From a virus, in the IMG/VR virus record IMGVR_UViG_3300042868_003730, positions 1 to 64,000 of that record: a stretch of 64,000 nt of DNA. One strand, given 5' to 3'. The notes under the pieces are model-generated. The model was not told the origin of the DNA, did not search any database, and saw only the letters and a program-made list of their open reading frames with translations. The position numbers and the translations under genes were made by a program. This document shows, one piece after another, positions 3,182 to 62,439 of this stretch; position 1 is the first letter of the stretch, and each line of letters begins with the position of its first letter.

Positions 3182-4203
3182 TTTGATTGTTTGATGTTGA
3201 TCTTATTGGTTGTGAAATCCTGATTCTTTATATTTATTGTCTTGTTGTCTTGCGTCAACGTGATATCATACCCACGGTCTTTGCTAATTAACATCACGGC
3301 ATCCTGTCCCATATGGCGTTCAATTTGCCAGTAGTAGTTCTTGTCAAAAATGTAAACACTATTTGTTGAGTTGAAACCAACTGCAAACAAATTCATATCC
3401 AAATTATCTAATACATTTGTTAGATAATTGGAGTCAAGTGCATTGACATCTAATGAATTAAATTTCAAAGGATCAACATATGGTTTGAGGTCCAACGCAT
3501 TAAAATCCAATCCGTTAAATGATAATGCGTCTGCTCTTGATGATGTTTCCTGAACAATCTTTTCCATTATTTCTTTTGGCGGAGAAAGTATCATCATATT
3601 ATCAATTGCAGATTCTGATAATAACAAGAGAACTGGCTTGAGTGGTTTAATCTCAGACATTCTCGTTACTGTTGCCTGAAATGCCTGGTTAAGCAATACT
3701 GTTCCTGCAACAGTTTTCACTTCAATCTCACCAACTGATCCATCTACGTTTGGTAGAAGTATTATGGTTGAAGATCCGATCTCATCTACGGTCATAGTAA
3801 AGGCAGTGCCCCGAACTGCAATAGATGCAGTTGGGGTACTGATTGCTACATTCTTATTATTCTCATGGGCAACAGCACCTGATGCATAACGAACAGTGCC
3901 CAGAGCCACTCTCATCACTAACTTACCTGTGCCTTTAGATTTTGGGTCATAGACAAAATCATCAATAACTAATTTTGAATGCTCAATGACCCTAACCTTG
4001 GTGTTATCATCGAAAGTTATACCAATAACACCATTTACAGTTTCCACTTTATCCATAGGCTCGATGCCACCATTCATCTTGGCACCAATTTTGGATTTCT
4101 TTCTTTCTATTTCACCGCTGCCCTTTTCCTCAGTAATTGTTCCTATAGCAGCAAAACAATTAATGCTGAACGATAGTAGTAGAAGTACCAGAACCTGTGA
4201 CAT
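3178..4203 (-). CDS. Secreted FecR-domain protein
   Basis: Signal peptide; FecR-like motifs ITFDDNTKVRV, STPTASIAVRGTAF. Confidence 0.8.
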   Translation of the reverse strand: MSQVLVLLLLSFSINCFAAIGTITEEKGSGEIERKKSKIGAKMNGGIEPMDKVETVNGVIGITFDDNTKVRVIEHSKLVIDDFVYDPKSKGTGKLVMRVALGTVRYASGAVAHENNKNVAISTPTASIAVRGTAFTMTVDEIGSSTIILLPNVDGSVGEIEVKTVAGTVLLNQAFQATVTRMSEIKPLKPVLLLLSESAIDNMMILSPPKEIMEKIVQETSSRADALSFNGLDFNALDLKPYVDPLKFNSLDVNALDSNYLTNVLDNLDMNLFAVGFNSTNSVYIFDKNYYWQIERHMGQDAVMLISKDRGYDITLTQDNKTINIKNQDFTTNKINIKQSK

Positions 4204-4879
4204 TCAATGTGACCTGGTTAGGACGAGTTGTTCCATCCTGTGTTATAGATGCAGTATTGTTGCTGCCGATAATGTTACTCTTAAAAGAGTGTCCTGTCAC
4301 ATTTGAAGTACCATGCGCACCGATTTGTGTTGTGGTCATTGTATTTGAGTTCCCCACAATAACGACCTCATTGAATGTATACTTGCTATTGATGGTATTT
4401 GTAATAGTATTTGAACTTCCGGTGGCAGTCAATGAAAAGTTATAATTACCTGCGTTCGCCGACGTGCCCATATTCAAGTTATGGGTATTGTTGTCTCCGG
4501 TGTATGTCAGATTCAATAAACCAGAACTCGTACCGAAGTTTCCTTGGTTAAGAGTCAAACTGTTTCCATTACCTATTTGCGTGATGTTTGCAGTTGAATC
4601 ACCACCAATGAAGTTACCAATGATGGCGTTGTTCATTCCGTCCTGTATGATTGTGAGAAACATTGAGTTTCCGTCAATCTCGAATGCTGGGGTCAATAGA
4701 CTTGTTCTGTCTCCGACGCTGTTGTCTGACCCAGTTTGTGTAATGCTGACACTAGAGTTATCTGCATCGGTCTGGTCAATGTAAACGGAGTTACCACCAG
4801 AATCTGCCGCCATAGTCAATCCAGAGATCATCATAGTAGATATCGCTGTCATAACAATATTACGGTTAAGGGGTTTCAT
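4160..4879 (-). CDS. Curlin-repeat secreted protein (CsgA/CsgB-like)
   Basis: Signal peptide; N/G/T/S-rich repeats of type xxIxQxGxxN (SITQTGSDN, TIIQDGMNN, NITQIGNGN, SITQDG); directly downstream of csgG. Confidence 0.75.
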   Translation of the reverse strand: MKPLNRNIVMTAISTMMISGLTMAADSGGNSVYIDQTDADNSSVSITQTGSDNSVGDRTSLLTPAFEIDGNSMFLTIIQDGMNNAIIGNFIGGDSTANITQIGNGNSLTLNQGNFGTSSGLLNLTYTGDNNTHNLNMGTSANAGNYNFSLTATGSSNTITNTINSKYTFNEVVIVGNSNTMTTTQIGAHGTSNVTGHSFKSNIIGSNNTASITQDGTTRPNQVTLNVTGSGTSTTIVQH

Positions 4880-4899
4880 TTTAGTTTAATCCTTTTGTT

Positions 4900-5673
4900 T
4901 TATTTGAAAGTCCATAGTTCTTTTCTGCGTCCTTCATAAACCAATTCTTCAACTGCCAATTCAATCGCAGATTTAACTGCGAATACACCAGGTTCAGTTG
5001 AAGTTACACCAATCTCGTTTTCGAATGCCTCAGTTCCCTTCTTGAAGAATTTGAATGTTGATATTGAATTAGCAACACTCAAAATTGTTTTCTGTGTATT
5101 GACAGTAAGAATAACTTCACCTGTCTGTACGTTAATTGCTCGGAGTGAAATTGTTACAATATCTTCTTGGTAACTCGTTTGTGGTCCAATTCCCAAGTAT
5201 GCTACGCCGAAACCACCTGTCTTCTGGTTTGAGTCATAAGATACGATACTACCTTCAACAATCATACCTGCATAAAGTATTGGACGAAGTATGTTTTCTT
5301 CTTTTGCCTCATCTCTTGCACTTCTGATCAGTTGACGTTCTTTTAAGAGATTGTCCAAATTGACTCTCTCGACAATTCTAAACCACTTACCATCACCGAC
5401 ATCTGCCAGTGCCTTCAACAATAATGCCTCACCACCTTGCGTTACTGCGGATGAGAACTTGGCAATGGTGTTAGAATCTTTCTTCTGTCCTGTTTTATCT
5501 GTAAATGAATATACTGCAATAACAATTGGTTGCCCTTTAGCTGGCTCAGGAAATGGTCTTTTGAATTTCGTTGGTTGCATCAATTCAGCAGGTTTAGCAT
5601 TCTGCATGATTGGTGATGTTGAGCAACCAACAAGTAAAGAGGTTACACCAATGAGAAATATAATTCTTAACAT
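4900..5673 (-). CDS. csgG: Curli secretion channel lipoprotein CsgG-like
   Basis: Lipobox LLVGC; AVYSFTDKTGQ, SSAVTQG, WFRIVERVNLDNLLKERQLIR, EGSIVSYDSN motifs. Confidence 0.92.
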   Translation of the reverse strand: MLRIIFLIGVTSLLVGCSTSPIMQNAKPAELMQPTKFKRPFPEPAKGQPIVIAVYSFTDKTGQKKDSNTIAKFSSAVTQGGEALLLKALADVGDGKWFRIVERVNLDNLLKERQLIRSARDEAKEENILRPILYAGMIVEGSIVSYDSNQKTGGFGVAYLGIGPQTSYQEDIVTISLRAINVQTGEVILTVNTQKTILSVANSISTFKFFKKGTEAFENEIGVTSTEPGVFAVKSAIELAVEELVYEGRRKELWTFK

Positions 5674-18555: not shown

Positions 18556-19497
18556 ATGTTAAGAATTGACGGTAAGAATAATATCTCTTGTACAGTTATT
18601 GCAGATTCAATGACTGCTGGTAGTCGGATGGTAACTATGGAACTGGAATATCCACGATTCATCCACGCAGAGTTGATGACGCATCGGATGTTGAGTAAGA
18701 ATGCCGCTAGTTCAAGAGCAATTCCTATTAAGAAAATGCACGAGACTATTACGGAAAAGACTGCAATGCCAGTACATTGGGGAAAGAATCAACCAGGGAT
18801 GAGTGCCAAAGAAGAAGTAGATGATCTCGTGAAGCTGGGTGCTGAGGGTGTGTGGAATGCAGCCAGGGATTCTATGCTGAGCCATTCCACTGTTATGAGT
18901 GATATGGGACTACACAAGCAGATCGCCAACAGAATCACTGAGCCATTCCAGATGATGAAAACTGTCATCTCTGGAACCGAGTGGGCTAACCTGATCTGGC
19001 TTCGCCATCACGCAGATGCGCAACCAGAGTTCTACGAACTAGCAGATTGTATTGTTAAGTGTCTTAAGCAGTCAGAATCTATGTTGATTGTTTCTGGCGA
19101 ATGGCATACTCCATATGTTCATCGCTTCCGTGATATCGATGGAGTTCTTCAGTATCTGGATTCCAATGGCGAGAAGTTGAGTAAAGAAGATGCAATCAAG
19201 GTATCGTCCAGCTGCTGCGCCCAAGTATCCTACCGTAGGAATGATGATTCGCTGGAGAAAGCCAAGGACATCTTCGCTCGATTGATTGAATCCGAACCAA
19301 TCCATGCATCTCCTATTGAGCATCAGGCGACTCCAATGAAAATCAAGAATGCTGGACTATATTCACAGGATATGAATCCAACCATCTGGGAAGAAGGCAT
19401 TACGCATATGGATCGTGACAAGAACTACTGGTCTGGCAACCTTCGTGGATTCATCCAGCATCGTAAACTTATCAAGTGCGAGGCGAAATGGGGATAA
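18556..19497 (+). CDS. thyX: Flavin-dependent thymidylate synthase (ThyX/Thy1 type)
   Basis: YPRFIHAELMTHRMLSKNAASSRAIP, HKQIANRITEPF, HASPIEHQA. Confidence 0.88.
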   Translation: MLRIDGKNNISCTVIADSMTAGSRMVTMELEYPRFIHAELMTHRMLSKNAASSRAIPIKKMHETITEKTAMPVHWGKNQPGMSAKEEVDDLVKLGAEGVWNAARDSMLSHSTVMSDMGLHKQIANRITEPFQMMKTVISGTEWANLIWLRHHADAQPEFYELADCIVKCLKQSESMLIVSGEWHTPYVHRFRDIDGVLQYLDSNGEKLSKEDAIKVSSSCCAQVSYRRNDDSLEKAKDIFARLIESEPIHASPIEHQATPMKIKNAGLYSQDMNPTIWEEGITHMDRDKNYWSGNLRGFIQHRKLIKCEAKWG

Positions 19498-25845: not shown

Positions 25846-26238
25846 ATGAGCAATATCTCTGAAATCCTATCTGCTGCCAATACTGATATCAATACACTCA
25901 AACAACACATCGGTAATAGATATCTACGTAATCTAATGGAAGCGGCGTATATCCCTGAGAAGAAGTTCGTTCTTCCAGAAGGACTTCCAGAATTCAAAGG
26001 CAATCTACAGCACCCAGATCAGATCAGTGGTGCTTTCTGGCAGATTGCTAAGAAACTTGACACCTTCCAACGAGCAGAACTACCTGCTATACGAAGAGAA
26101 AGTATTTTCATCCAGTCACTGGAATCATTGAGCGCGATTGATGCCAAGATTCTTATTGCTGTCAAGGAACAAACACTTCATAAGATGTTCAAGACTCTTA
26201 CGTTGAAGAACCTAAAGGCAGTTGGATACTTCGCATAA
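25846..26238 (+). CDS. Conserved T4-like hypothetical protein
   Basis: LPEG, RRESIFIQSLESL pattern; downstream of rnh. Confidence 0.8.
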   Translation: MSNISEILSAANTDINTLKQHIGNRYLRNLMEAAYIPEKKFVLPEGLPEFKGNLQHPDQISGAFWQIAKKLDTFQRAELPAIRRESIFIQSLESLSAIDAKILIAVKEQTLHKMFKTLTLKNLKAVGYFA

Positions 26239-26687
26239 TGTCAAAGTTCGACCAGTTCTATATGAATGTGGCCACTGGCGCGGCCAATCTCAGTCATGCC
26301 AAAAGAGCACAAGTCGGGGCGGTGGCTGTCAGAGATAGAAATATCCTGGCATTTGGCTACAATGGTACTCTTCCAGGAACAAGTAATGTCTGTGAAGATG
26401 AGCATGGAAATACCAAGGCAGAAGTAATTCATGCTGAGGAGAATCTTCTTATGAAGATGGCCAGGTCTTCAGTCTCAGTTGAGGGAGCAGTTGTATACGT
26501 GACTATGGCTCCCTGCATCAACTGCTCCAGGCTTATGGCCAATGCAGGAATAAAGAAGGTAATCTACCGAGATACATACCGAGACTTATCCGGAGTTGAC
26601 CTACTCAACAAATATGGCATCGAAGTAAAGCAATTCCAAACTATTCTTGACCAAGAGCAGAAAACAGTGTGGAGTGTCTTGGACTAA
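26238..26687 (+). CDS. cd: dCMP deaminase
   Basis: QVGAV, GYNG, HAEEN, PCINC. Confidence 0.92.
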   Translation: MSKFDQFYMNVATGAANLSHAKRAQVGAVAVRDRNILAFGYNGTLPGTSNVCEDEHGNTKAEVIHAEENLLMKMARSSVSVEGAVVYVTMAPCINCSRLMANAGIKKVIYRDTYRDLSGVDLLNKYGIEVKQFQTILDQEQKTVWSVLD

Positions 26688-54565: not shown

Positions 54566-55543
54566 ATGATTAAGAAAACTAAATTAAAACTAACTGACGA
54601 ACGTCAATTCTTCAAGCCATTCTCTTATCCATGGTGCTATGATGCGTTTATGCAATCAGAGCAAATGCATTGGTTGCCTGCAGAGGCTCCGATGTTGGAG
54701 GATGTGAAGGACTGGAAGAATAAGTTAACTGAGAATGAGAAGCGATTCTTGACTCATATCTTCCGATTTTTCACGCAGGGCGACATTGACGTCTCTGGTG
54801 CTTATGTAAAGAACTATCTACCGAACTTCCCTCAGCCAGAAGTTCGAATGATGTTGAGCAGTTTCTGCGCACGTGAGGCGATTCACGTTGCTGCCTATTC
54901 TCACTTGATTGAGACGCTAGGCATGCCAGAAACTACTTACAATGAATTCCTGCAGTATAAAGAGATGCAGGACAAGCACGATTTCATTGCTAGTTTTATT
55001 GAAGAAGACTCCGACACAATTGCTCAACAGATTGCTGTGTTCTCGGCATTTACTGAAGGTCTGCAGTTGTTTAGTTCTTTTGTTATGTTGTTGAACTTTG
55101 CTCGATTCGGTAAGATGAAAGGAATGGGTCAGATCATTGCCTGGTCTATTGCTGATGAATCTCTGCATTGTGAGTCCATGATCAAGTTGTTCCGTGAGTT
55201 TATCAAGGAGAACAAGGATATCTGGAATGATGAATTAAAATCACAAATATATACTGTAGCAGAGAAGATGGTTGAGTTAGAAGATAATTTCATTGACCTG
55301 GCATTTGGGGTTACTGAAATGGAAGGTCTAACTAAAGAAGATGTTAAGCAATATATTCGTTACATTGCTGATCGTCGTCTAATCTCTCTTGGTATGAAGG
55401 GGATTTTCAAAGTAAAGAAGAACCCTCTTCCATGGGTTGATGGCATGCTCGGTACTACTCATACAAATTTCTTTGAGAACAAGAGTACTGATTACGCCAA
55501 GGGTGCATTGACTGGCTCGTGGGAAGATGTCTGGTCAAAATAA
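54566..55543 (+). CDS. nrdB: Class I ribonucleotide reductase beta subunit
   Basis: FFTQGD, EAIH..AY, EGLQLFSSF, DESLH, NFFE; start moved to ATG 54566. Confidence 0.96.
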   Translation: MIKKTKLKLTDERQFFKPFSYPWCYDAFMQSEQMHWLPAEAPMLEDVKDWKNKLTENEKRFLTHIFRFFTQGDIDVSGAYVKNYLPNFPQPEVRMMLSSFCAREAIHVAAYSHLIETLGMPETTYNEFLQYKEMQDKHDFIASFIEEDSDTIAQQIAVFSAFTEGLQLFSSFVMLLNFARFGKMKGMGQIIAWSIADESLHCESMIKLFREFIKENKDIWNDELKSQIYTVAEKMVELEDNFIDLAFGVTEMEGLTKEDVKQYIRYIADRRLISLGMKGIFKVKKNPLPWVDGMLGTTHTNFFENKSTDYAKGALTGSWEDVWSK

Positions 55544-55554
55544 GGATAATAACA

Positions 55555-55704
55555 ATGCAGAAGATCAATTTCGAGTGTGAGAGCTGTGATGCGAAGGGAA
55601 CTATCAGATTACCTTCGGAGTGTGATGGTTATAGAATAGAGGTCTGTCCTTGTTGTGCTGGTCCATTAGATATGGACGAGGACTACGAAGATGACGAAGA
55701 ATAA
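55555..55704 (+). CDS. Small zinc-ribbon protein
   Basis: CESC..CPCC, AAGGA SD. Confidence 0.7.
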   Translation: MQKINFECESCDAKGTIRLPSECDGYRIEVCPCCAGPLDMDEDYEDDEE

Positions 55705-56110
55705 TGGCTGGCATCTACTAGACGGCACTGTTCTCGAAACTCCTCCAACTGACGCAGTAGGGTTTGTTTACCGCATAACTCGGATCTCTGATGGTAAGTT
55801 TTACATCGGTAAAAAGAAACTTACCTTCAAACGATCTAAGATGGTAAAGGGCAAAAGGAAACGATTTACTATCGATTCTGATTGGCTAACCTACTACGGC
55901 AGTTCAGAAGAACTTAAAAATGATGTCAAATCTCTCGGAGAGGATTCGTTTCTCCGAGAGATTCTCCACATGTGTACTACTTTGAGTCAATGTAATTACC
56001 TCGAGACTATGGAGATCTTTAGTAATAGGTGTCTATTACGGGAAGATTGCTACAACTCCTGGGTATCCTGTAAAATTCATAAGAAACACGTCCTTGGAAA
56101 GATGCTTTAA
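55691..56110 (+). CDS. GIY-YIG endonuclease
   Basis: GFVYRIT..FYIGKK, YYGSS, REIL, YLE, YN. Confidence 0.85.
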   Translation: MTKNNGWHLLDGTVLETPPTDAVGFVYRITRISDGKFYIGKKKLTFKRSKMVKGKRKRFTIDSDWLTYYGSSEELKNDVKSLGEDSFLREILHMCTTLSQCNYLETMEIFSNRCLLREDCYNSWVSCKIHKKHVLGKML

Positions 56111-56116
56111 GTTTAT

Positions 56117-56145
56117 TTTACATCTATACATATATCAGGCATAAT
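56117..56145 (+). promoter_or_regulatory. sigma70-type promoter of the modification cluster
   Basis: TTTACA-17nt-CATAAT, GAGG SD downstream. Confidence 0.65.
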
Positions 56146-56171
56146 TACTGAATCGTAACCTGAGGTGAAAA

Positions 56172-57524
56172 ATGGTAAGAAAAATTGTAGCAAATGAAGT
56201 TTATGACTCCAAGCATCTGCTGGGGACTTTCCTTGATGAATCTAATTACGATATTCTAATTGAGGAAGATTGTGATGTTTATGCACCTGCTGGATGCGAT
56301 CTAGCAACAACAGTTGATTGTAAGCCGCAATCTGATTGCGCAGAATGCCCTAAAGGTATTTCCGAAGATAGGGTTGCTTTCAAATTCCGAAAGAACTACT
56401 TCAGCAAGGAACAGCAACAAGCAGCCTATGAAGGTCTGCGTGCTGCAGCAACTCCGACTAATAATCGTGGTACAGCAGCGGGTACTGTTCGCGTCGGTAA
56501 GGCAGGTAATCGTGAGTGGGTCACGGAATACCAGGAAGCAGTAATCAAATACTTTGCTAAACCTTATACCACTATTACTGGTGAAGATCCGCTCGAAGAA
56601 CTATTTGCTAGGAAAGAGCAGATGGCTGAACCTGGTACCATAAACACAGTATGGAGAACAGGTGCTCCGATTGTGTTTGAAGAGTGGGTCGAAGCAACCA
56701 GAAAACTACCAGCAGAAAAACAAAAGTTAGCAGCGAAAAATATCCTTGAGGATAACATCTCAGCTACTACCTACGCCAATGAAGTGCTTAGTGGAATTGC
56801 TGGTGCTTTCGGAAGAACTCCCCGAGTTCCATTCGGTCGTCTTGCTGCATACAATGAGCGCAATCCAGATATGTTTGAAAGAGGTGTGCCATTCCTGCAG
56901 ACACTTGATCGGGCATTTTCTGAACTTATGCCAGAACGCCACGGAGCGCAAAAGAACTTTGTTGATTCATTGGATGAACATTTCCGAATCGCAGATACGG
57001 TGTTCACCACACTGACTATCAATAAGACGTTCCGTACTGCTGCTCACCTTGACGCAGGTGATTATGGCCCAGGATTCTCTAATCTTCTTGTTCTTTCAAA
57101 CGATGGTGATTTCACTGGTGGTTACTTGATTCTTCCTGAGTTTAGGATTGCAGTTAATGTTCGACCTGGCGATCTGTTGCTGATTGCAAACCATACTGCG
57201 ATTCACGGAAACACTCCGATCGTTCTTGGCTCAGAAGCCAGTGAGCGTATCTCCATTGTTGCTTACGCTCGTGAAGATCTTAAGTCACTTGGTACTTGGG
57301 ACTATGAACAGACTCGAAAGAGATACGTTGACAGTTGCAGGGATAATAAAGACCACCCGCACTGGTGGGATCGTTTCACTGGGGTATGGGCAGGAATGTG
57401 GCAATCCAAAGAATGGTATGATTATTTGGTAGCTGCATTGGGTGAAGATGAGGCTCGTGCTAATGACCCAGCTATTTTTGAGATCCACAATAATGGATCA
57501 GTTGGTCTTGAGTCCTTCTTCTGA
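56172..57524 (+). CDS. TET/JBP-like 2-oxoglutarate/Fe(II) dioxygenase
   Basis: FTTLTINK.FRTAAHLDAGD (HxD), GGYLILPE, HGNTPI (distal His), ERISIVAY.RE (2OG Arg). Confidence 0.85.
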   Translation: MVRKIVANEVYDSKHLLGTFLDESNYDILIEEDCDVYAPAGCDLATTVDCKPQSDCAECPKGISEDRVAFKFRKNYFSKEQQQAAYEGLRAAATPTNNRGTAAGTVRVGKAGNREWVTEYQEAVIKYFAKPYTTITGEDPLEELFARKEQMAEPGTINTVWRTGAPIVFEEWVEATRKLPAEKQKLAAKNILEDNISATTYANEVLSGIAGAFGRTPRVPFGRLAAYNERNPDMFERGVPFLQTLDRAFSELMPERHGAQKNFVDSLDEHFRIADTVFTTLTINKTFRTAAHLDAGDYGPGFSNLLVLSNDGDFTGGYLILPEFRIAVNVRPGDLLLIANHTAIHGNTPIVLGSEASERISIVAYAREDLKSLGTWDYEQTRKRYVDSCRDNKDHPHWWDRFTGVWAGMWQSKEWYDYLVAALGEDEARANDPAIFEIHNNGSVGLESFF

Positions 57525-58204
57525 TGTGTGCAGTTATTGGCGCAACAATTAAGAATCCAAGTAGCGCAGATTTTCAAACACTGAAAAGAGTATTCCACGA
57601 ATCCCGCATTCGTGGAATGCACGCTACTGGATTATCATACGTCAAGAACAATAAAATCCACACAAACAAACTTCCAGTATCTGCTGATAAGTTTCCCTTT
57701 GATTGGGATGATTATGTCAATGAAGATGGCAATCTTTATTTGGTGGGTCACTGTCGTTACTCAACTTCAGACCTGCAATATAATCAACCCATTAACAATG
57801 ATACTATATCAGTAGTTCATAATGGTGTGGTGACACAAGAGTCACCAGAGAGCTGGAAAGATAATTATGGTTATGACTGCGTAACAAAGAATGATACTGA
57901 GTTGATCCTTAAATCATTAGAGGCAGATGAATCTCCTCTTGAGCACTGGTCAGAATCATCTCTGGCTGTTTGTGAACTATGGAATGATAAGAAGATTCGG
58001 TTCTACCGAAATGGAAAGCGACCAATTTATTTTACTTCAGTCGATCGCGGAACTATAATTACTTCTACGCGAGATATTGCTATTCGCTCTGGTTTAACTA
58101 ATACCACTGAACTTCCGTATAATACATACGCCACAATTAAGAGTGATGGACTAATTATGGAACAAGTAAGTGTAAACAATAAAGACTTACAGCATACACT
58201 ATGA
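57524..58204 (+). CDS. Class II (Ntn) glutamine amidotransferase
   Basis: N-terminal Cys2, RG.HATG, GHCRYST, HNG, NDTE. Confidence 0.88.
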   Translation: MCAVIGATIKNPSSADFQTLKRVFHESRIRGMHATGLSYVKNNKIHTNKLPVSADKFPFDWDDYVNEDGNLYLVGHCRYSTSDLQYNQPINNDTISVVHNGVVTQESPESWKDNYGYDCVTKNDTELILKSLEADESPLEHWSESSLAVCELWNDKKIRFYRNGKRPIYFTSVDRGTIITSTRDIAIRSGLTNTTELPYNTYATIKSDGLIMEQVSVNNKDLQHTL

Positions 58205-59079
58205 CAAAATACAATCCCAGTAACTTTACGTATGGTATGGAAATAGAGTGGGGTGATGTTCCTCGCTCTTTTGCGATTCCGGATAACCTTGGGTCGTGGG
58301 AATATTCTGAACGGGATATTATAAACCTAAGAGAACCATATCAATATGTCTGCGCTGATCCTCTTGGTGAGACACCACCAGTAGGAGGTGAGATCAACAC
58401 AAAGCCAACTAAAACTTGGCAAGAGCAGGTTGCTCGATACTTTGAGTTGAAAGAATTGTTTGAGTCAAATGGATCTTCTCCTACAGTTGGTGTAACTGCT
58501 CATACGCACATTCACTGTCGTGTTCCTGGGTTGAAGGATGATATCAATGCTCTAAAGTCTTTGACGAAATATATCAAAGAAAATCAGGCAGCAGCTATTG
58601 ATCGAATCTATGGGTTCTACGAACATAATCAGATGAAGGGTGCTAAGGGTGCCAAGATGTATTTGAAGTTCGATGGTGGTCGCCCAATGCCAGATTATAT
58701 GAGCGATAACATTATCAGCAAGGCAACTGACTTCGATTCATTCATCAAGATGCACGCTGCTGGTAAAGATGGTGTATCAATGGGTAGGCCATTTAGATTT
58801 GCCATCAATATGTATGCATTGAAGCATATTGACACAGTAGAGTTTAGGTTGTTCCGTGGTACATTTGACAGAAACCAACTTGAGTCTTGTTTCCGTTTTG
58901 TTCAAGACTTTCTTGATGCTGCGTTGAACGATGGTCCAACTGTTGATGAGTTGTTCTCAAACAATAATTACAATTTCCCTCCAATGATGTGGGATCTAAA
59001 TCAATTCATTGGTTGGGAGAAAACTAAACACCCAGAAGATCGTGGTAAGAAAGTAAGGACATTCGTTGAAGTTATCTAA
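58201..59079 (+). CDS. Amidoligase (COOH-NH2 ligase) family enzyme
   Basis: YGMEIE, GEIN, HTHIH, AIN, TVEFRLFRGT. Confidence 0.8.
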   Translation: MTKYNPSNFTYGMEIEWGDVPRSFAIPDNLGSWEYSERDIINLREPYQYVCADPLGETPPVGGEINTKPTKTWQEQVARYFELKELFESNGSSPTVGVTAHTHIHCRVPGLKDDINALKSLTKYIKENQAAAIDRIYGFYEHNQMKGAKGAKMYLKFDGGRPMPDYMSDNIISKATDFDSFIKMHAAGKDGVSMGRPFRFAINMYALKHIDTVEFRLFRGTFDRNQLESCFRFVQDFLDAALNDGPTVDELFSNNNYNFPPMMWDLNQFIGWEKTKHPEDRGKKVRTFVEVI

Positions 59080-59623
59080 ATGCACACGAGATAAATTTAT
59101 CTCAAGTATTAGCACAGCGAAAGAAGATAATTTTGCTCGCACATTTGTCGCTAAGGCAGATATGCAAGAACAGTGGGATTATTGTCTCGGGTTGTTTGAT
59201 AATACAGGAGATCTTATGGCAGCAATCATTACCACAATCTCCAAAAGGAAACCATTCGTAGCCAACCTTCAATTGTTGCATACATTCGCTAAGCATAGAG
59301 GGCAGGGTGCAGCTAGGTTGCTTTGTGAGCAATCTTTACTGAATGTAAAGAATCACGGAGCTGAGTATTTCCGAGTTTCTTCTGAGATCAATGCTGTTGC
59401 ATTCTATGAGAAGATAGGTTTCAAGTTTTGGGGAAAACAAAAGAGTGGTTGCCAACTTTCGATATTCCGAATTGATGGCGGCACATTCGCTGAGGGTGAT
59501 TATGATTATTATGATTCAATGATCCATAACGCAATCCATAAAAAAGGTAAGGGTGGGTGCGTTGAACTATTTGATATTGCAAAGAATAAAGACAATGGTC
59601 TTCAAGAGTTATTCTCAGCATGA
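59066..59623 (+). CDS. GNAT acetyltransferase
   Basis: HRGQGAA acetyl-CoA motif A, AVAFYEKIGF. Confidence 0.88.
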   Translation: MKLSKCTRDKFISSISTAKEDNFARTFVAKADMQEQWDYCLGLFDNTGDLMAAIITTISKRKPFVANLQLLHTFAKHRGQGAARLLCEQSLLNVKNHGAEYFRVSSEINAVAFYEKIGFKFWGKQKSGCQLSIFRIDGGTFAEGDYDYYDSMIHNAIHKKGKGGCVELFDIAKNKDNGLQELFSA

Positions 59624-60633
59624 ATCATAAAGAACTTCCAAGAGAATCATTTATTCGTTGGTATGCCTGGTCATTAAAATATAATGATTGTGACCCAGCT
59701 GTGTGGGCAACAAATTATCTAAACAAAAGATTCGAGCATAACTCTGAACAGAAACTGTGGCTCGCGTGGTTATACGGAAACACCTATCATCTGCCTACTG
59801 CTTGGGTTCTAATGAATGAGTTTCCTGATTTTGAATTAGCAACAGTTGACCGAACTACTCAATGGAATACTGCTAACTATAAAAGATTACGTTATCAGAC
59901 AGATACAAAATGGAACAAAGGACATCTACCAGTGATGTTCAAATCCTATCAAGAATTTATAGGTGAAGGAAGTCAACATGACCGTATTGAATCATACTAT
60001 GCTGGAAATGCGAAAGAAAATTTTGATTCTTTGTGGAATGTACTTAAAGGAAACCTTCATAAGTTTGGTCGTTATTCTACTTGGTTTTATATGCAGCATC
60101 TCAAACATACTGCTAGTGTTAATGTCGAGCCTACTTCTCTCATGTTGGATGATTATGATGGTTCCCGTTCTCATCGTAATGGGTTACTTATGGCCATCGG
60201 CAGGAATAACGATTATGATAGGAAACTTAGTACAGCGGAGTATCGAGACCTTGAGTCTATTAGCATTGGAATTATCGATGAGATGAGGGATAGGTTTCCG
60301 GAGTTAAAAGATCAGATTGATTTCTTTACAATGGAAACCTGTCTGTGCTCATTTAAGAAAATCTTCAGAGAACACCATGGTCGTTATCTTGGTTACTACT
60401 TAGATCGGCAGGCTGAAGAGATTATGCAATGCGAGAAAGATGGCTGGCATGGTATTGACTGGGAAGTTCTTTGGCAAGCAAGGAATGAAACAATTGATTC
60501 GCGATTGAACAATAAGAGAGGTATTATCAAAGAAAAGTTTACTTCTTTTGTTAGAGAAGGTAAGATTGATAATCTCGAGTGGATGTTCGATGATGAAGAA
60601 TGTAGTAATGTTAGTTTGGAGAAATTCTTATGA
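59620..60633 (+). CDS. aGPT-Pplase2-like amino acid:DNA transferase
   Basis: WLYGNTY, FGRYSTWFY, SHRNGL, METCLCSFKK, RYLGYY motifs; operon context. Confidence 0.78.
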   Translation: MNHKELPRESFIRWYAWSLKYNDCDPAVWATNYLNKRFEHNSEQKLWLAWLYGNTYHLPTAWVLMNEFPDFELATVDRTTQWNTANYKRLRYQTDTKWNKGHLPVMFKSYQEFIGEGSQHDRIESYYAGNAKENFDSLWNVLKGNLHKFGRYSTWFYMQHLKHTASVNVEPTSLMLDDYDGSRSHRNGLLMAIGRNNDYDRKLSTAEYRDLESISIGIIDEMRDRFPELKDQIDFFTMETCLCSFKKIFREHHGRYLGYYLDRQAEEIMQCEKDGWHGIDWEVLWQARNETIDSRLNNKRGIIKEKFTSFVREGKIDNLEWMFDDEECSNVSLEKFL

Positions 60634-61175
60634 GAAAAATCGTAGCAGTTGGTGGTCAACCAGGAACAGGTAAAACTACTCTATTCCGTAAATTTATGGA
60701 AGATAAAACCTGGGAGAAGGTTGAGCCAAAGAAAATGCTTCCTGCTCTTTACTGCAAGGAACTTGATCTTTATGTTCTGGGTAAGTATGAAGAGGGTGAG
60801 ACGTTTGCTGGTACTGACCGATTAAGTATGGCTGTGCAGCCAATCGCTCAGTGTTTTGTTACTGAGACTAAATCGAATGTCTTGTTTGAAGGTGATCGAA
60901 TCTTTAATCAGTCCTTTCTGGAATTCGCTATGGCTCTTCCGGAAGTTGATCTTCAGGTTATCTATCTTAAGGTTTCGCCAGAAACCCTGACTCAACGATA
61001 CGCCGATAGAGGATCAGATCAGTCAGAGACTTTCCTAAAGGGAAGAGCCACTAAATATAATAACATACTTTCAAATTTTGAATTGATGCCCTATATTAAT
61101 GAGTTCGTGAACACTACATTAGAAGATCAATTGAAAGTTATCAAATTTATGGAAAATCATTTAATAGGTAAATAA
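60630..61175 (+). CDS. P-loop nucleotide kinase (candidate hydroxymethyl-base DNA kinase)
   Basis: GGQPGTGKTT, GTDRLS, FEGDR, R..RGS.Q. Confidence 0.82.
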   Translation: MRKIVAVGGQPGTGKTTLFRKFMEDKTWEKVEPKKMLPALYCKELDLYVLGKYEEGETFAGTDRLSMAVQPIAQCFVTETKSNVLFEGDRIFNQSFLEFAMALPEVDLQVIYLKVSPETLTQRYADRGSDQSETFLKGRATKYNNILSNFELMPYINEFVNTTLEDQLKVIKFMENHLIGK

Positions 61176-62267
61176 ATGCTTTCGCTAAAACAATATATAT
61201 CCGAGACAGAAAATAAAATGGCAGCATCTATCAAAAAGAAATTACTGACTCCGTCAAAGTTTGGCTTAAACACAATGAAGCCCATGACTTCGAGTCAAAT
61301 AGTGACTGTTGCCAGAAAGAGATTAATGTCGTTGGATATATCAGATGATGCTAAAAAATTATGTAATTATATAATTGATCAATCCATTGCTGGTAAAGAT
61401 AGTTTCCCTGCAAAATTTAGTGGTGTTTCTAATGAAGATCTTGGTGTTATAACTTCTGACTTCGGTGAGGTTGCTGGCGCCATTTACATGCTAAACTCCA
61501 AAATGGGTTACACTCATGCTAGATTTCCAATTGGAGAGAATGAGCGTCTCGTAGATTACTATCTTGTTAGGGATGGTATTGATGAGAAGATTTCTGCTAA
61601 AGCAGGTCAGGGTGGTGCACCTGCTCTTACTGCTGTAGAGAAAGCATTAGGAGATATTGACACCAAAATACTAAACGATACACAAAAGAAAGCATTAAGT
61701 GTCTTGGACTTTATCAATAAGGGTACTGTTTACGGTGGTGTTCTTGAAGCAGCTAAATTTCTTAAGATGCCTGGGTATAAGGCATTGATATCGATCTTGT
61801 CCAGAAAAGATTTGAAGACTGGTTATAATGCACCAAACATCCCTGACCAACAAGATCTTATCAGAGCTGTTGACGCATGCGGAACTTTTGACTCTTGCAT
61901 GAGTGAGTTCAAGCCTCTGTTCACTGCTGCCAATTTTGTATTAGGTGGTGAGGGTAAGATGAGATCTGTTTTTGATGGAAGCGCAGGATCTAGATATAAG
62001 AAATGGGGCATCCTACACTTTCCAGTTACTAGTGAAGTTATGGGGTGGTTAAATGATCCCGACAATGAAGCAAGAAATTTGTTGACCATGGCTGCTAGAA
62101 CTCTGACAGTTAGTCAGGTTTATTTTGACTATAAATCGAACAATTTTTCATATACAACGAAAACCTTTTCTGACGCTGACTTCAAATTCCATTCTCCGTC
62201 AAGTACACCAAACCCAGTGGGAAACAGAATTGGCATGAAAATGATCAAATCGCCGAAGAAAGAATAA
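61176..62267 (+). CDS. Hypothetical protein, possible PD-(D/E)XK-type nuclease with head-targeting N-terminus
   Basis: MLSLKQYISE; DFGE..FP..N..LVDY..KISAK; TAAATA immediately upstream. Confidence 0.6.
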   Translation: MLSLKQYISETENKMAASIKKKLLTPSKFGLNTMKPMTSSQIVTVARKRLMSLDISDDAKKLCNYIIDQSIAGKDSFPAKFSGVSNEDLGVITSDFGEVAGAIYMLNSKMGYTHARFPIGENERLVDYYLVRDGIDEKISAKAGQGGAPALTAVEKALGDIDTKILNDTQKKALSVLDFINKGTVYGGVLEAAKFLKMPGYKALISILSRKDLKTGYNAPNIPDQQDLIRAVDACGTFDSCMSEFKPLFTAANFVLGGEGKMRSVFDGSAGSRYKKWGILHFPVTSEVMGWLNDPDNEARNLLTMAARTLTVSQVYFDYKSNNFSYTTKTFSDADFKFHSPSSTPNPVGNRIGMKMIKSPKKE

Positions 62268-62320
62268 TTTACTTTTATTCAATTTCGCGGTATAATAACT
62301 TATTGAAGTTTGAAGGAGAA
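62268..62320 (+). promoter_or_regulatory. Early promoter cassette
   Basis: TTTACT-17nt-TATAAT. Confidence 0.85.
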
Positions 62321-62325
62321 ATGAA

Positions 62326-62439
62326 ATGTCCCGTCGCCAATATTGCATGGATCTTATTATTGCTCTTAACCAAGCCAAGGCAGCTGGCGATTTCGTCCGA
62401 GCTGACTACCTTCAACTTTGCATCAATGAGTTGACCTAA
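62326..62439 (+). CDS. 37-aa early hypothetical protein (MSRRQYCMDL...)
   Basis: AAGGAG SD behind promoter; not in ORF track. Confidence 0.55.
   Translation: MSRRQYCMDLIIALNQAKAAGDFVRADYLQLCINELT

Follow-up and report, generated by a model that had tools for sequence, protein, structure and literature searches.

How could a phage that makes ordinary dTTP come to carry an elaborated thymine in its DNA, and how would the enzymes responsible reach so many bases? These questions are raised by a run of translationally coupled genes in the IMG/VR record IMGVR_UViG_3300042868_003730. The window analyzed here, 64,000 nucleotides in length, is the first 64 kb of this 147,921-bp viral record, which has direct terminal repeats and is judged to be a complete genome; its source is an uncultured freshwater T4-like phage. 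Six genes (A to F) at 56172-61175 on the + strand encode a TET/JBP-family dioxygenase, a glutamine amidotransferase (GATase), an amidoligase, a GNAT acetyltransferase, an amino acid:DNA transferase (AADT), and a P-loop kinase. Judging from the sequences, we think it likely that this operon specifies a post-replicative pathway of thymidine hypermodification, that the pathway installs a nitrogen-bearing side chain, and that its DNA-acting enzymes are docked by their C-terminal tails. The end product may be an undescribed base, for example an acylated 5-aminomethyluracil that arises by a route other than the glycine/flavin one, and its probable role is to shield the phage DNA from nucleases of the host. 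The study of post-replicative thymine hypermodification has begun only recently. The gene set belongs to a published kind and only the product is new ground; the feature that distinguishes this variant is a ParB-less, clamp-tailed enzyme set in a swappable cassette.

Six enzymes and the route they suggest

The first-pass annotation of this DNA had proposed six translationally coupled open reading frames (ORFs) on the + strand and a family for each one. All six ORFs are present and all six families were confirmed, five through Pfam matches above the cut-off and the amidoligase through its fold only. Gene A (56172..57524, + strand; 450 aa) is a TET/JBP-family 5-methylpyrimidine dioxygenase, predicted to be a thymine dioxygenase. 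Its residues 235-368 match PF12851 with 74.1 bits against a cut-off of 34.9, and phrog_24024 covers it over its full length. H292, D294, H345, and R359, which make up the HxD...H iron triad and the 2-oxoglutarate Arg, are invariant in an alignment of 20 homologues. When the family profile was compared with human TET2 (E 5e-4), the HxD motif, the distal His, and the Arg lined up with the TET2 segments AHAHRD, LHATTP, and RISLVFY. The nearest TETs from cultured phages (DLP6, Cr30, and C48C1) are only 40-47% identical, and a single-sequence search of the PDB gave nothing usable. About 80 residues lie beyond the last strand of the TET core without a Pfam match; at E <= 10, Pfam found nothing in residues 1-200 or in residues 369-450. 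A protein atlas links the N-terminal part weakly to the TET fold (0.84), and neither the sequence searches nor the atlas gave any sign of a fused ParB-like domain in this part.

Residues 41-60 of the TET (56292-56351) are a variable insert with C42, C50, C56, and C59 (C-x7-C-x5-C-x2-C), which about half of the homologues in the alignment possess and which may form a small zinc knuckle. Two cultured phages that carry this TET family, Caulobacter phage Cr30 (locus L001) and Stenotrophomonas phage DLP6 (L002/L097), have the protein annotated as "SNF2 DNA repair protein." The Cr30 gene is accompanied by an AADT-like gene and an inositol-1-phosphate synthase. Both phages could serve to identify TET-dependent bases by mass spectrometry.

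Gene F (60630..61175, + strand; 181 aa) is a P-loop kinase of the 5-hydroxymethyldeoxyuridine (5-hmdU) DNA kinase type, with 36.2 bits against Ploopntkinase3 (PF18751; cut-off 27) and the Walker A motif GQPGTGKTT. Gene E (59620..60633, + strand; 337 aa) is an AADT of the aGPT-Pplase2 type (ADDT, PF18724, 84.5 bits) that is at most 28% identical to any homologue from a cultured phage. Its E239 and C243 are invariant across nine diverse AADTs, among them the ViI-type orf248 of CBA120 and the enzymes of a mycobacteriophage, a Vibrio phage, and Cr30. M6 gp51 and ViI gp247 both require the corresponding Glu and Cys (Lee et al. 2021, PMC8989533), and the counterpart of C243 in the structure of PaMx11 gp46 is the catalytic Cys247 (PMC11472151). 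A sequence search of the PDB with the AADT gave nothing usable, PaMx11 gp46 being too distant for phmmer.

The remaining three genes would provide the tailoring chemistry. Gene B (57524..58204, + strand; 226 aa) is a stand-alone class II (Ntn) GATase domain with 33.9 bits against GATase_6 (PF13522; cut-off 27). It aligns to the N-terminal domains of PurF and AsnB, begins with MCAVIG, in which Cys2 is the nucleophile, and has the RYST, HNG, and NDTE motifs. Gene C (58201..59079, + strand; 292 aa) falls under the Pfam cut-off, with 13.4 bits against 22 for Amidoligase_2 over residues 206-236 only, and a sequence search of the PDB found nothing usable. Its AlphaFold2 (AF2) model, with a predicted local distance difference test (pLDDT) score of 89, matches only glutamine-synthetase-like (GS-like) carboxylate-amine ligases, and we read the protein as an ATP-dependent amidoligase of this kind. 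The best fold matches are two YbdK structures, 1tt4 (Z 10.6, root-mean-square deviation 4.3, 216 residues aligned) and 1r8g (Z 10.4); 217 chains score Z >= 8, and each one listed is of the GS, GCL, YbdK, or PafA/Dop type. Residues E14, E16, E64, H101/103/105, R199, E214, and R216 are invariant, and a homologue in locus L041 that is 28% identical passes PF12224 with 23.9 bits. Gene D (59066..59623, + strand; 185 aa), which starts with TTG, is a GNAT N-acetyltransferase (PF13673, 42.2 bits) with the acetyl-CoA motif RGQGA.

Together these activities suggest the following route. The TET/JBP enzyme would hydroxylate thymine in DNA to 5-hydroxymethyluracil (5hmU), and the kinase would phosphorylate the hydroxyl to give 5-phosphomethyluracil. 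Cys243 of the AADT would then attack C6, the phosphate would leave, and a nitrogen nucleophile would add to the exocyclic methylene. The GATase may supply glutamine-derived ammonia for this amination, either directly, giving 5-aminomethyluracil, or by way of a donor that the amidoligase builds with ATP. The amidoligase would add one more amide bond in this cassette, and the GNAT would N-acetylate the product on DNA. We offer only tentatively the idea that ammonia from the GATase feeds the AADT step, whether directly or through an amidoligase-built donor.

Phage dioxygenases of this kind, the 5mYOX enzymes of clades C1 and C2, oxidize thymine on DNA, and genes for GATases, P-loop kinases, and AADTs are consistently associated with clade C1, many members of which need a ParB-like activator (O'Toole et al. 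2026, PMC13229309). In the same study, ParB-less clade C1 members showed no detectable activity in Escherichia coli, a result that weighs against our interpretation and leaves the activity of the present TET only a prediction. It could even be taken, as could the lack of any known product, to mean that the TET is catalytically silent or that the substrates of the cluster are nucleotides, RNA, or a small molecule rather than DNA. We give this explanation very little credence: the catalytic residues are intact in every enzyme, the kinase and AADT families are known solely from DNA modification at the polymer level (PMC8989533), and the operon has been conserved across many metagenomes from lakes and rivers and across 133 viral contigs.

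Thymine as the likely substrate

Which base does the TET act on? The answer depends on what the rest of the genome can make. The first-pass annotation had reported ThyX and a dCMP deaminase, and both were found in the window, the deaminase (26238..26687, + strand) with 78.9 bits against PF00383 and ThyX (18556..19497, + strand) with a weak 33.9 bits against PF02511. ThyX is divergent and scores 39.5 bits against TIGR02170, which is under the cut-off of that model. Its signature is THR..S....SSR in place of RHR, and the C-terminus is extended by about 140 aa. With these two enzymes, which point to a normal dTMP supply, ordinary dTTP would be made. A search of the complete 147.9-kb genome found no C5-methyltransferase (PF00145) and no ThyA-type enzyme (PF00303), hence no dUMP or dCMP hydroxymethylase. 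Thymine in DNA therefore appears to be the only abundant 5-methylpyrimidine available and is the likely substrate of the TET. Oxidation of thymine on DNA, which the first-pass annotation had supposed with 5-methylcytosine as an alternative, is the best reading: the TET stands in the place of a dUMP hydroxymethylase in a genome that lacks the alternatives. The same reasoning about the substrate has been applied to such clusters by Lee et al. (PMC8989533) and O'Toole et al. (PMC13229309).

A host methyltransferase could also provide 5-methylcytosine (5mC), in which case the pathway would decorate cytosine instead of thymine. Phage TETs of clades A and B oxidize 5mC, and P-loop kinases have been proposed to act on TET-made 5-hydroxymethylcytosine in some contigs (PMC8256090); 5mYOX97 and 5mYOX176 oxidize 5mC in vitro as well (PMC13229309). 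Against this stand the lack of a C5-methyltransferase in the complete phage genome, the presence of such an enzyme in only 6% of 5mYOX pathways, the rest of which are read as thymine dioxygenases (PMC13229309), and the use of 5hmU by the characterized AADT and kinase families (PMC8989533). We consider a cytosine pathway highly improbable and continue with thymine as the substrate.

C-terminal tails of the polymerase type

If thymine is oxidized on DNA, the enzymes have to find it there. The first-pass annotation had missed a feature of the operon that bears on this question, namely that the TET and the AADT end in short acidic-hydrophobic tails. The TET tail, GLESFF (57504..57521, + strand), and the AADT tail, SLEKFL (60613..60630, + strand), are putative docking epitopes for the gp45 sliding clamp. 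The phage's own gp43 polymerase (genome positions 138560-141064; PF00136, 120 bits) ends in SLESFFG, and its gp55 homologue (genome positions 125897-126496) ends in ALDQFFGENK. T4 gp43 and gp55 end in ASLDFLFG and SLDFLYEAND, respectively, and the gp43 and gp55 tails are known, interchangeable clamp-binding epitopes (Geiduschek and Kassavetis 2010, PMC2988020). The gp55 homologue mirrors T4 gp55 down to the four residues that follow the motif.

The C-termini of the 190 other ORFs were scored against the polymerase tail SLESFF. The TET ranked first with a score of 25 and the AADT ranked second with 19; a score of at least 19 has a random P of about 5e-4 per protein, so that about 0.1 proteins are expected per genome. 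The tails are also conserved, with [SAGT]L[ED]xFF kept in 80 of 83 TET homologues and [GS]LExF in 37 of 38 AADT homologues. The linker before the TET tail varies in both length and sequence and the tail itself is invariant, an arrangement shared with gp55, whose fixed tail follows a variable linker (PMC2988020). In DLP6, the TET tail ATLGDFFV resembles the tail of that phage's own polymerase, ATLDSFFA. AADTs of phages that are not T4-like (CBA120 and the mycobacteriophage) have no such tail.

The sister cassettes found in relatives, described below, extend the pattern to unrelated enzymes. Their GNAT, the positional equivalent of gene D, ends in PSLEEFL(L/V), their TET-associated glycosyltransferase (TAGT) in GDLSEFF, and a GT1 glycosyltransferase in ATLDSLFG. 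No tail of this type is present on the GATase, the amidoligase, the small unknown proteins, the HAD phosphatase, the nucleotidyltransferases, or the inositol-phosphate synthase. The tail thus sorts the cassette genes into those whose products touch DNA and those that make co-substrates, which narrows the possible chemistry.

Structure prediction lends weak support. A predicted complex of the gp45 trimer with TET residues 381-450 scored 0.56, and the best control scored 0.00; the complex runs shared at least 57% of their contacts, with a pLDDT of 58 or more for the partner. Of 80 solved complexes, 58 attained the mark used for such scores, as did 2 of 110 mismatched pairs, and the range up to 0.60 holds only 7 of the 80 solved complexes along with both of the mismatches that passed.

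Several observations count against clamp docking. The GNAT tail of this operon, GLQELFSA, is borderline (score 12, P of about 0.01 per protein), and the baseplate hub protein, which ends in GLNNFF, reaches 17 by chance. The pass in complex prediction may reflect only likeness to the solved RB69 clamp-polymerase peptide complex. In Cr30, the TET and AADT tails (TGATLF and KWFKVL) fit the motif poorly. These points would favor a different account, in which the tails arose by chance, serve as a shared degradation or assembly signal, or bind some other partner, and the enzymes find DNA unaided. Besides the hub, the high-scoring C-termini include those of a wedge protein and an adaptor (PLEFFMG); as these three are structural proteins, we discarded them as clamp ligands and read their tails as chance matches. 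We find the account without a clamp rather doubtful in view of the first and second ranks of the TET and AADT, the invariant tails on variable linkers, the tails of DNA-acting sister enzymes and not of co-substrate enzymes, and the way in which the DLP6 TET tail tracks its own polymerase.

Sharing the gp43/gp55 epitope, the TET and the AADT are therefore probably docked on gp45 and would act just behind the replication fork, and we favor, on the strength of these sequence patterns, the view that the DNA-acting enzymes of the operon dock on the sliding clamp. Clamp docking would be a simple answer to how a dioxygenase reaches most of the thymines of a 148-kb genome within one infection cycle. 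In the literature searched, no paper was found that links a replicative clamp to phage base-modifying enzymes.

A broader idea follows from the absence of ParB. The complete genome has no ParB (PF02195) match at E <= 1, and upstream of the TET in relatives lie DnaB-like helicase and UvsX-size genes with no ParB adjoining. It is possible, if still speculative, that gp45 in T4-like phages fills the role that a ParB-type CTP clamp has for other phage thymine dioxygenases. The TET, the AADT, the GNAT, and the sister glycosyltransferases would then be tool-belt ligands of the clamp, thymine hypermodification would be coupled to the fork, and the tail-less GATase and amidoligase would make the nitrogen donor off DNA. 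Such a replacement would explain the silence of ParB-less clade C1 TETs when they are expressed alone in E. coli, and co-expression of the clamp and its loader may activate enzymes that are silent alone.

Cassette exchange and the source of the nitrogen

The relatives of this operon, compared by tblastn synteny and by Pfam scans of their variable genes, bear on what the GATase and amidoligase do. The full-length 450-aa TET is encoded at 133 IMG/VR loci, and the cassettes were counted at the 36 loci with at least 4.3 kb downstream of it. The TET heads interchangeable cassettes, across which a TET-kinase-AADT core is conserved. The gene order of the window (GATase, amidoligase, GNAT, AADT, kinase) also occurs at L005, L006, L012, L026, and L039. 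At 23 of the 36 loci a GATase is found together with this AADT type and the kinase, and 22 of these lack the amidoligase: they have the GATase, a divergent GNAT, sometimes a 242-aa unknown protein, the AADT, an unknown protein of 133-147 aa, and the kinase. One locus has the GATase, Amidoligase_2, a second 2-oxoglutarate (2OG) oxygenase, a low-molecular-weight phosphatase, the AADT, and the kinase. Other contents are a TAGT, a HAD phosphatase, and a nucleotidyltransferase (4/36); a different AADT with an inositol-1-phosphate-synthase-like gene (3/36); a cytidylyltransferase with a GT1 glycosyltransferase (1/36); and none of these cassette genes (6/36).

Without exception this AADT type has the GATase as a companion, whether or not the amidoligase is present, so a strict GATase-amidoligase pair is unlikely. 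This result bears on the order of chemistry that the first-pass annotation had put forward, in which the GATase and amidoligase amidate an appended amino acid. In that order the AADT adds a free amino acid, the amidoligase uses GATase ammonia to amidate its carboxylate on DNA, and the GNAT acetylates the amine, giving an N-acetyl amino-acid-amide thymine. The scheme has points in its favor: characterized AADTs transfer glycine, serine, or putrescine (PMC8989533), GS-like ligases activate carboxylates and the GATase provides ammonia, and CmoY is an ATP-dependent amide ligase that works on a DNA base, with a glutaminase-fused cluster also predicted to amidate (PMC12783734). The 22 cassettes without an amidoligase argue that the partner of the GATase cannot generally be the amidoligase, and neither protein has the clamp-type tail of the DNA-acting enzymes. 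We therefore do not favor amidation of an appended amino acid and regard it as unlikely.

The preferred proposal, that GATase ammonia serves the AADT step, has its own difficulties. At L005, the GATase, amidoligase, and GNAT have been replaced jointly (55-58% identity) and the TET and kinase are 91-93% identical; exchange of these three genes as a block fits a GATase-amidoligase functional unit and speaks for the amino-acid-first order. Class II GATase domains are usually part of the same polypeptide as their synthase, and Ntn relatives that stand alone may instead be amide hydrolases. Lastly, sequence does not tell which nucleophile the AADT would use or on which acyl substrates the amidoligase and the GNAT would work.

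Some cassette genes deserve separate mention. The amidoligase-less cassettes always have the 133-147-aa ORF, which matches no family, between the AADT and the kinase (for example L069 6385-6786 and L063 7072-7515), and the 242-aa ORF that sometimes follows the GNAT is seen at L063 5332-6060. The amidoligase cassettes lack the 133-147-aa ORF, and either of the two may carry out the same step in its own cassette. At L041, positions 4110-5172, which separate the amidoligase from the AADT, hold the second 2OG-Fe(II) oxygenase (PF13640) and the low-molecular-weight phosphatase (PF01451), an addition that points to yet another product.

The exchange itself can be seen among close relatives. L008-L010 share the backbone of the window, with NrdA and NrdB 94-96% identical and the same SegE gene, but carry a glycosyl cassette where the window has genes B to G, between the TET and an 84-aa ORF at 62439; gene G, the ORF after the kinase, thus lies inside the swapped segment. 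The SegE-like GIY-YIG homing endonuclease gene (55691..56110, + strand; PF19835, 109.4 bits) is located between nrdB and the operon and occupies the corresponding position in L005-L010, upstream of a differing cassette. An endonuclease of this type may drive the exchange of cassettes. Swapping at one site in near-identical phages shows a pathway diversifying under pressure from host nucleases.

Relation to known systems

The first-pass annotation knew of no characterized base made by this combination of enzymes. The final base is indeed uncharacterized, and a literature search found no paper that names the end product of a TET-GATase-amidoligase-GNAT-AADT-kinase cluster; the gene cluster itself has already been published (PMC8989533, PMC13229309). 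Lee et al. (2021) described metavirome contigs with a 5-HMUDK, aGPT-Pplase2, amidoligase, and glutaminotransferase, and in one group of them TET_JBP replaces the hydroxymethylase (Fig. 2, sequences 22-25; PMC8989533). Burke et al. (2021) reported kinase and aGPT-Pplase genes beside phage TETs (PMC8256090).

A close likeness is to the clade C1 5mYOX clusters represented by 5mYOX176/ParB176 (PMC13229309). As in those clusters, the TET has no neighboring C5-methyltransferase, lies with GATase, P-loop kinase, and AADT genes, would work post-replicatively, and has a C-terminal extension past its catalytic core. The present system differs in having no ParB, either in the complete genome or beside the TET in relatives, and its TET, of 450 aa, is longer, with the variable Cys-rich insert and a polymerase-type clamp epitope at the C-terminus. 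With the metavirome and PaMx11 pathways (PMC8989533) it shares the kinase, the AADT with its Glu/Cys dyad, and the GNAT, and with the metavirome clusters also the replacement of dUMP hydroxymethylase by the TET and the co-occurring amidoligase and glutaminotransferase, to which no role was assigned. PaMx11 makes 5-acetylaminomethyl-dU, forming the aminomethyl group from glycine with a flavin lyase, whereas the operon described here has a GATase and no flavoenzyme; the phage is also T4-like with ordinary dTTP, unlike those systems.

Trypanosome JBP1/2 offers a parallel in that a TET/JBP enzyme hydroxylates thymine in DNA and the resulting 5hmU is then decorated to give base J. The sister cassettes of L008-L010, with their TAGT, look like a base-J-like route. 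In the phage operon of the window, decoration would instead proceed by kinase and AADT amination and by acylation, not by glucosylation. The CmoX/CmoY carboxymethylcytosine-glycine amide system (PMC12783734) is similar in using an ATP-dependent amide ligase to tailor a DNA base, with a glutaminase-linked variant predicted to use ammonia. CmoY is of the asparagine-synthetase type (AMP-forming) and acts on cytosine, whereas gene C has a GS/YbdK-type fold and would serve thymine. As for the tails, they resemble the epitopes of T4 gp43, gp55, and gp33 in being short acidic-hydrophobic motifs near the C-terminus after a variable linker (PMC2988020). In T4 the epitope is found on replication and transcription proteins and is lacking from the DNA glucosyltransferases, whereas here it is putatively on base-modifying enzymes. 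A DNA thymine hydroxylase, a DNA aminating transferase, and enzymes for N-acyl tailoring of DNA would be of interest for sequencing chemistry and DNA labeling.

Operon limits, gene G, and genomic setting

A six-gene operon behind one promoter had been proposed in the first-pass annotation. A candidate site does lie in the sole intergenic gap upstream (56111-56171): a sigma-70-like promoter, TTTACA-17-CATAAT (56117..56145, + strand), with 10 of 12 matches. It is a candidate only, as promoter-like sites are not enriched in the region (22 found, with 19.3 expected from shuffled sequence). A reading of the gap found no late-promoter motif, and the next promoter-like site comes at 62268. The count of six was too short, in that a seventh coupled gene was missed. 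Seven ORFs stand in a row on the + strand, six at 56172-61175 and then gene G (61176-62267), which begins one base past the kinase stop and ends directly before the site at 62268. Among the six, genes A and B overlap by 1 nt (57524), B/C, D/E, and E/F by 4 nt each, and C/D by 14 nt.

Gene G (61176..62267, + strand; 363 aa) is a possible PD-(D/E)xK endonuclease of the HinP1I/MspI-like kind. It matches no family in Pfam, PHROG, or NCBIfam but has 55 homologues, in 26 of which D95, E98, D127, and S140-A-K142 are invariant, E98 lying in the preceding helix. Foldseek gave no significant match and a PDB sequence search no usable one. The AF2 model (pLDDT 89) has weak fold matches in which nucleases dominate: I-Ssp6803I (Z 5.3), HhaI (5.0), and MspI (4.6), followed by EcoRV, NlaIV, HincII, and HinP1I. 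The nearest named cluster in the protein atlas is R.HinP1I (0.91), which we treat as a lead. Homologues of gene G follow other cassette types too (L019, L045, and L057). It is attractive to suppose, as a lead only, that the modeled protein is a nuclease to which modified DNA is resistant. The idea that gene G is a ParB-type helper was dropped, there being no ParB chain among the listed fold matches, although that is not proof.

The neighborhood is T4-like, with NrdA, NrdB, and the SegE-type endonuclease immediately upstream of the operon; farther off, the genome also encodes a family B polymerase, a gp45-type clamp, and the gp55 homologue. When the polymerase was sought with Pfam among eight large ORFs at 41-52 kb, nothing was found, and the polymerase lies outside the window. 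The cultured polymerases closest to it are cyanomyovirus enzymes of about 43% identity. A megablast search with the operon against 50,697 phage records gave no match, and operon DNA was seen repeatedly in lake and river metagenomes from several studies. Between nrdB and segE there is one more small ORF (55519-55704; 61 codons from GTG or 49 from an ATG at 55556), whose product, with a CxxC ... CPCC arrangement and a very acidic tail, resembles a zinc-ribbon protein.

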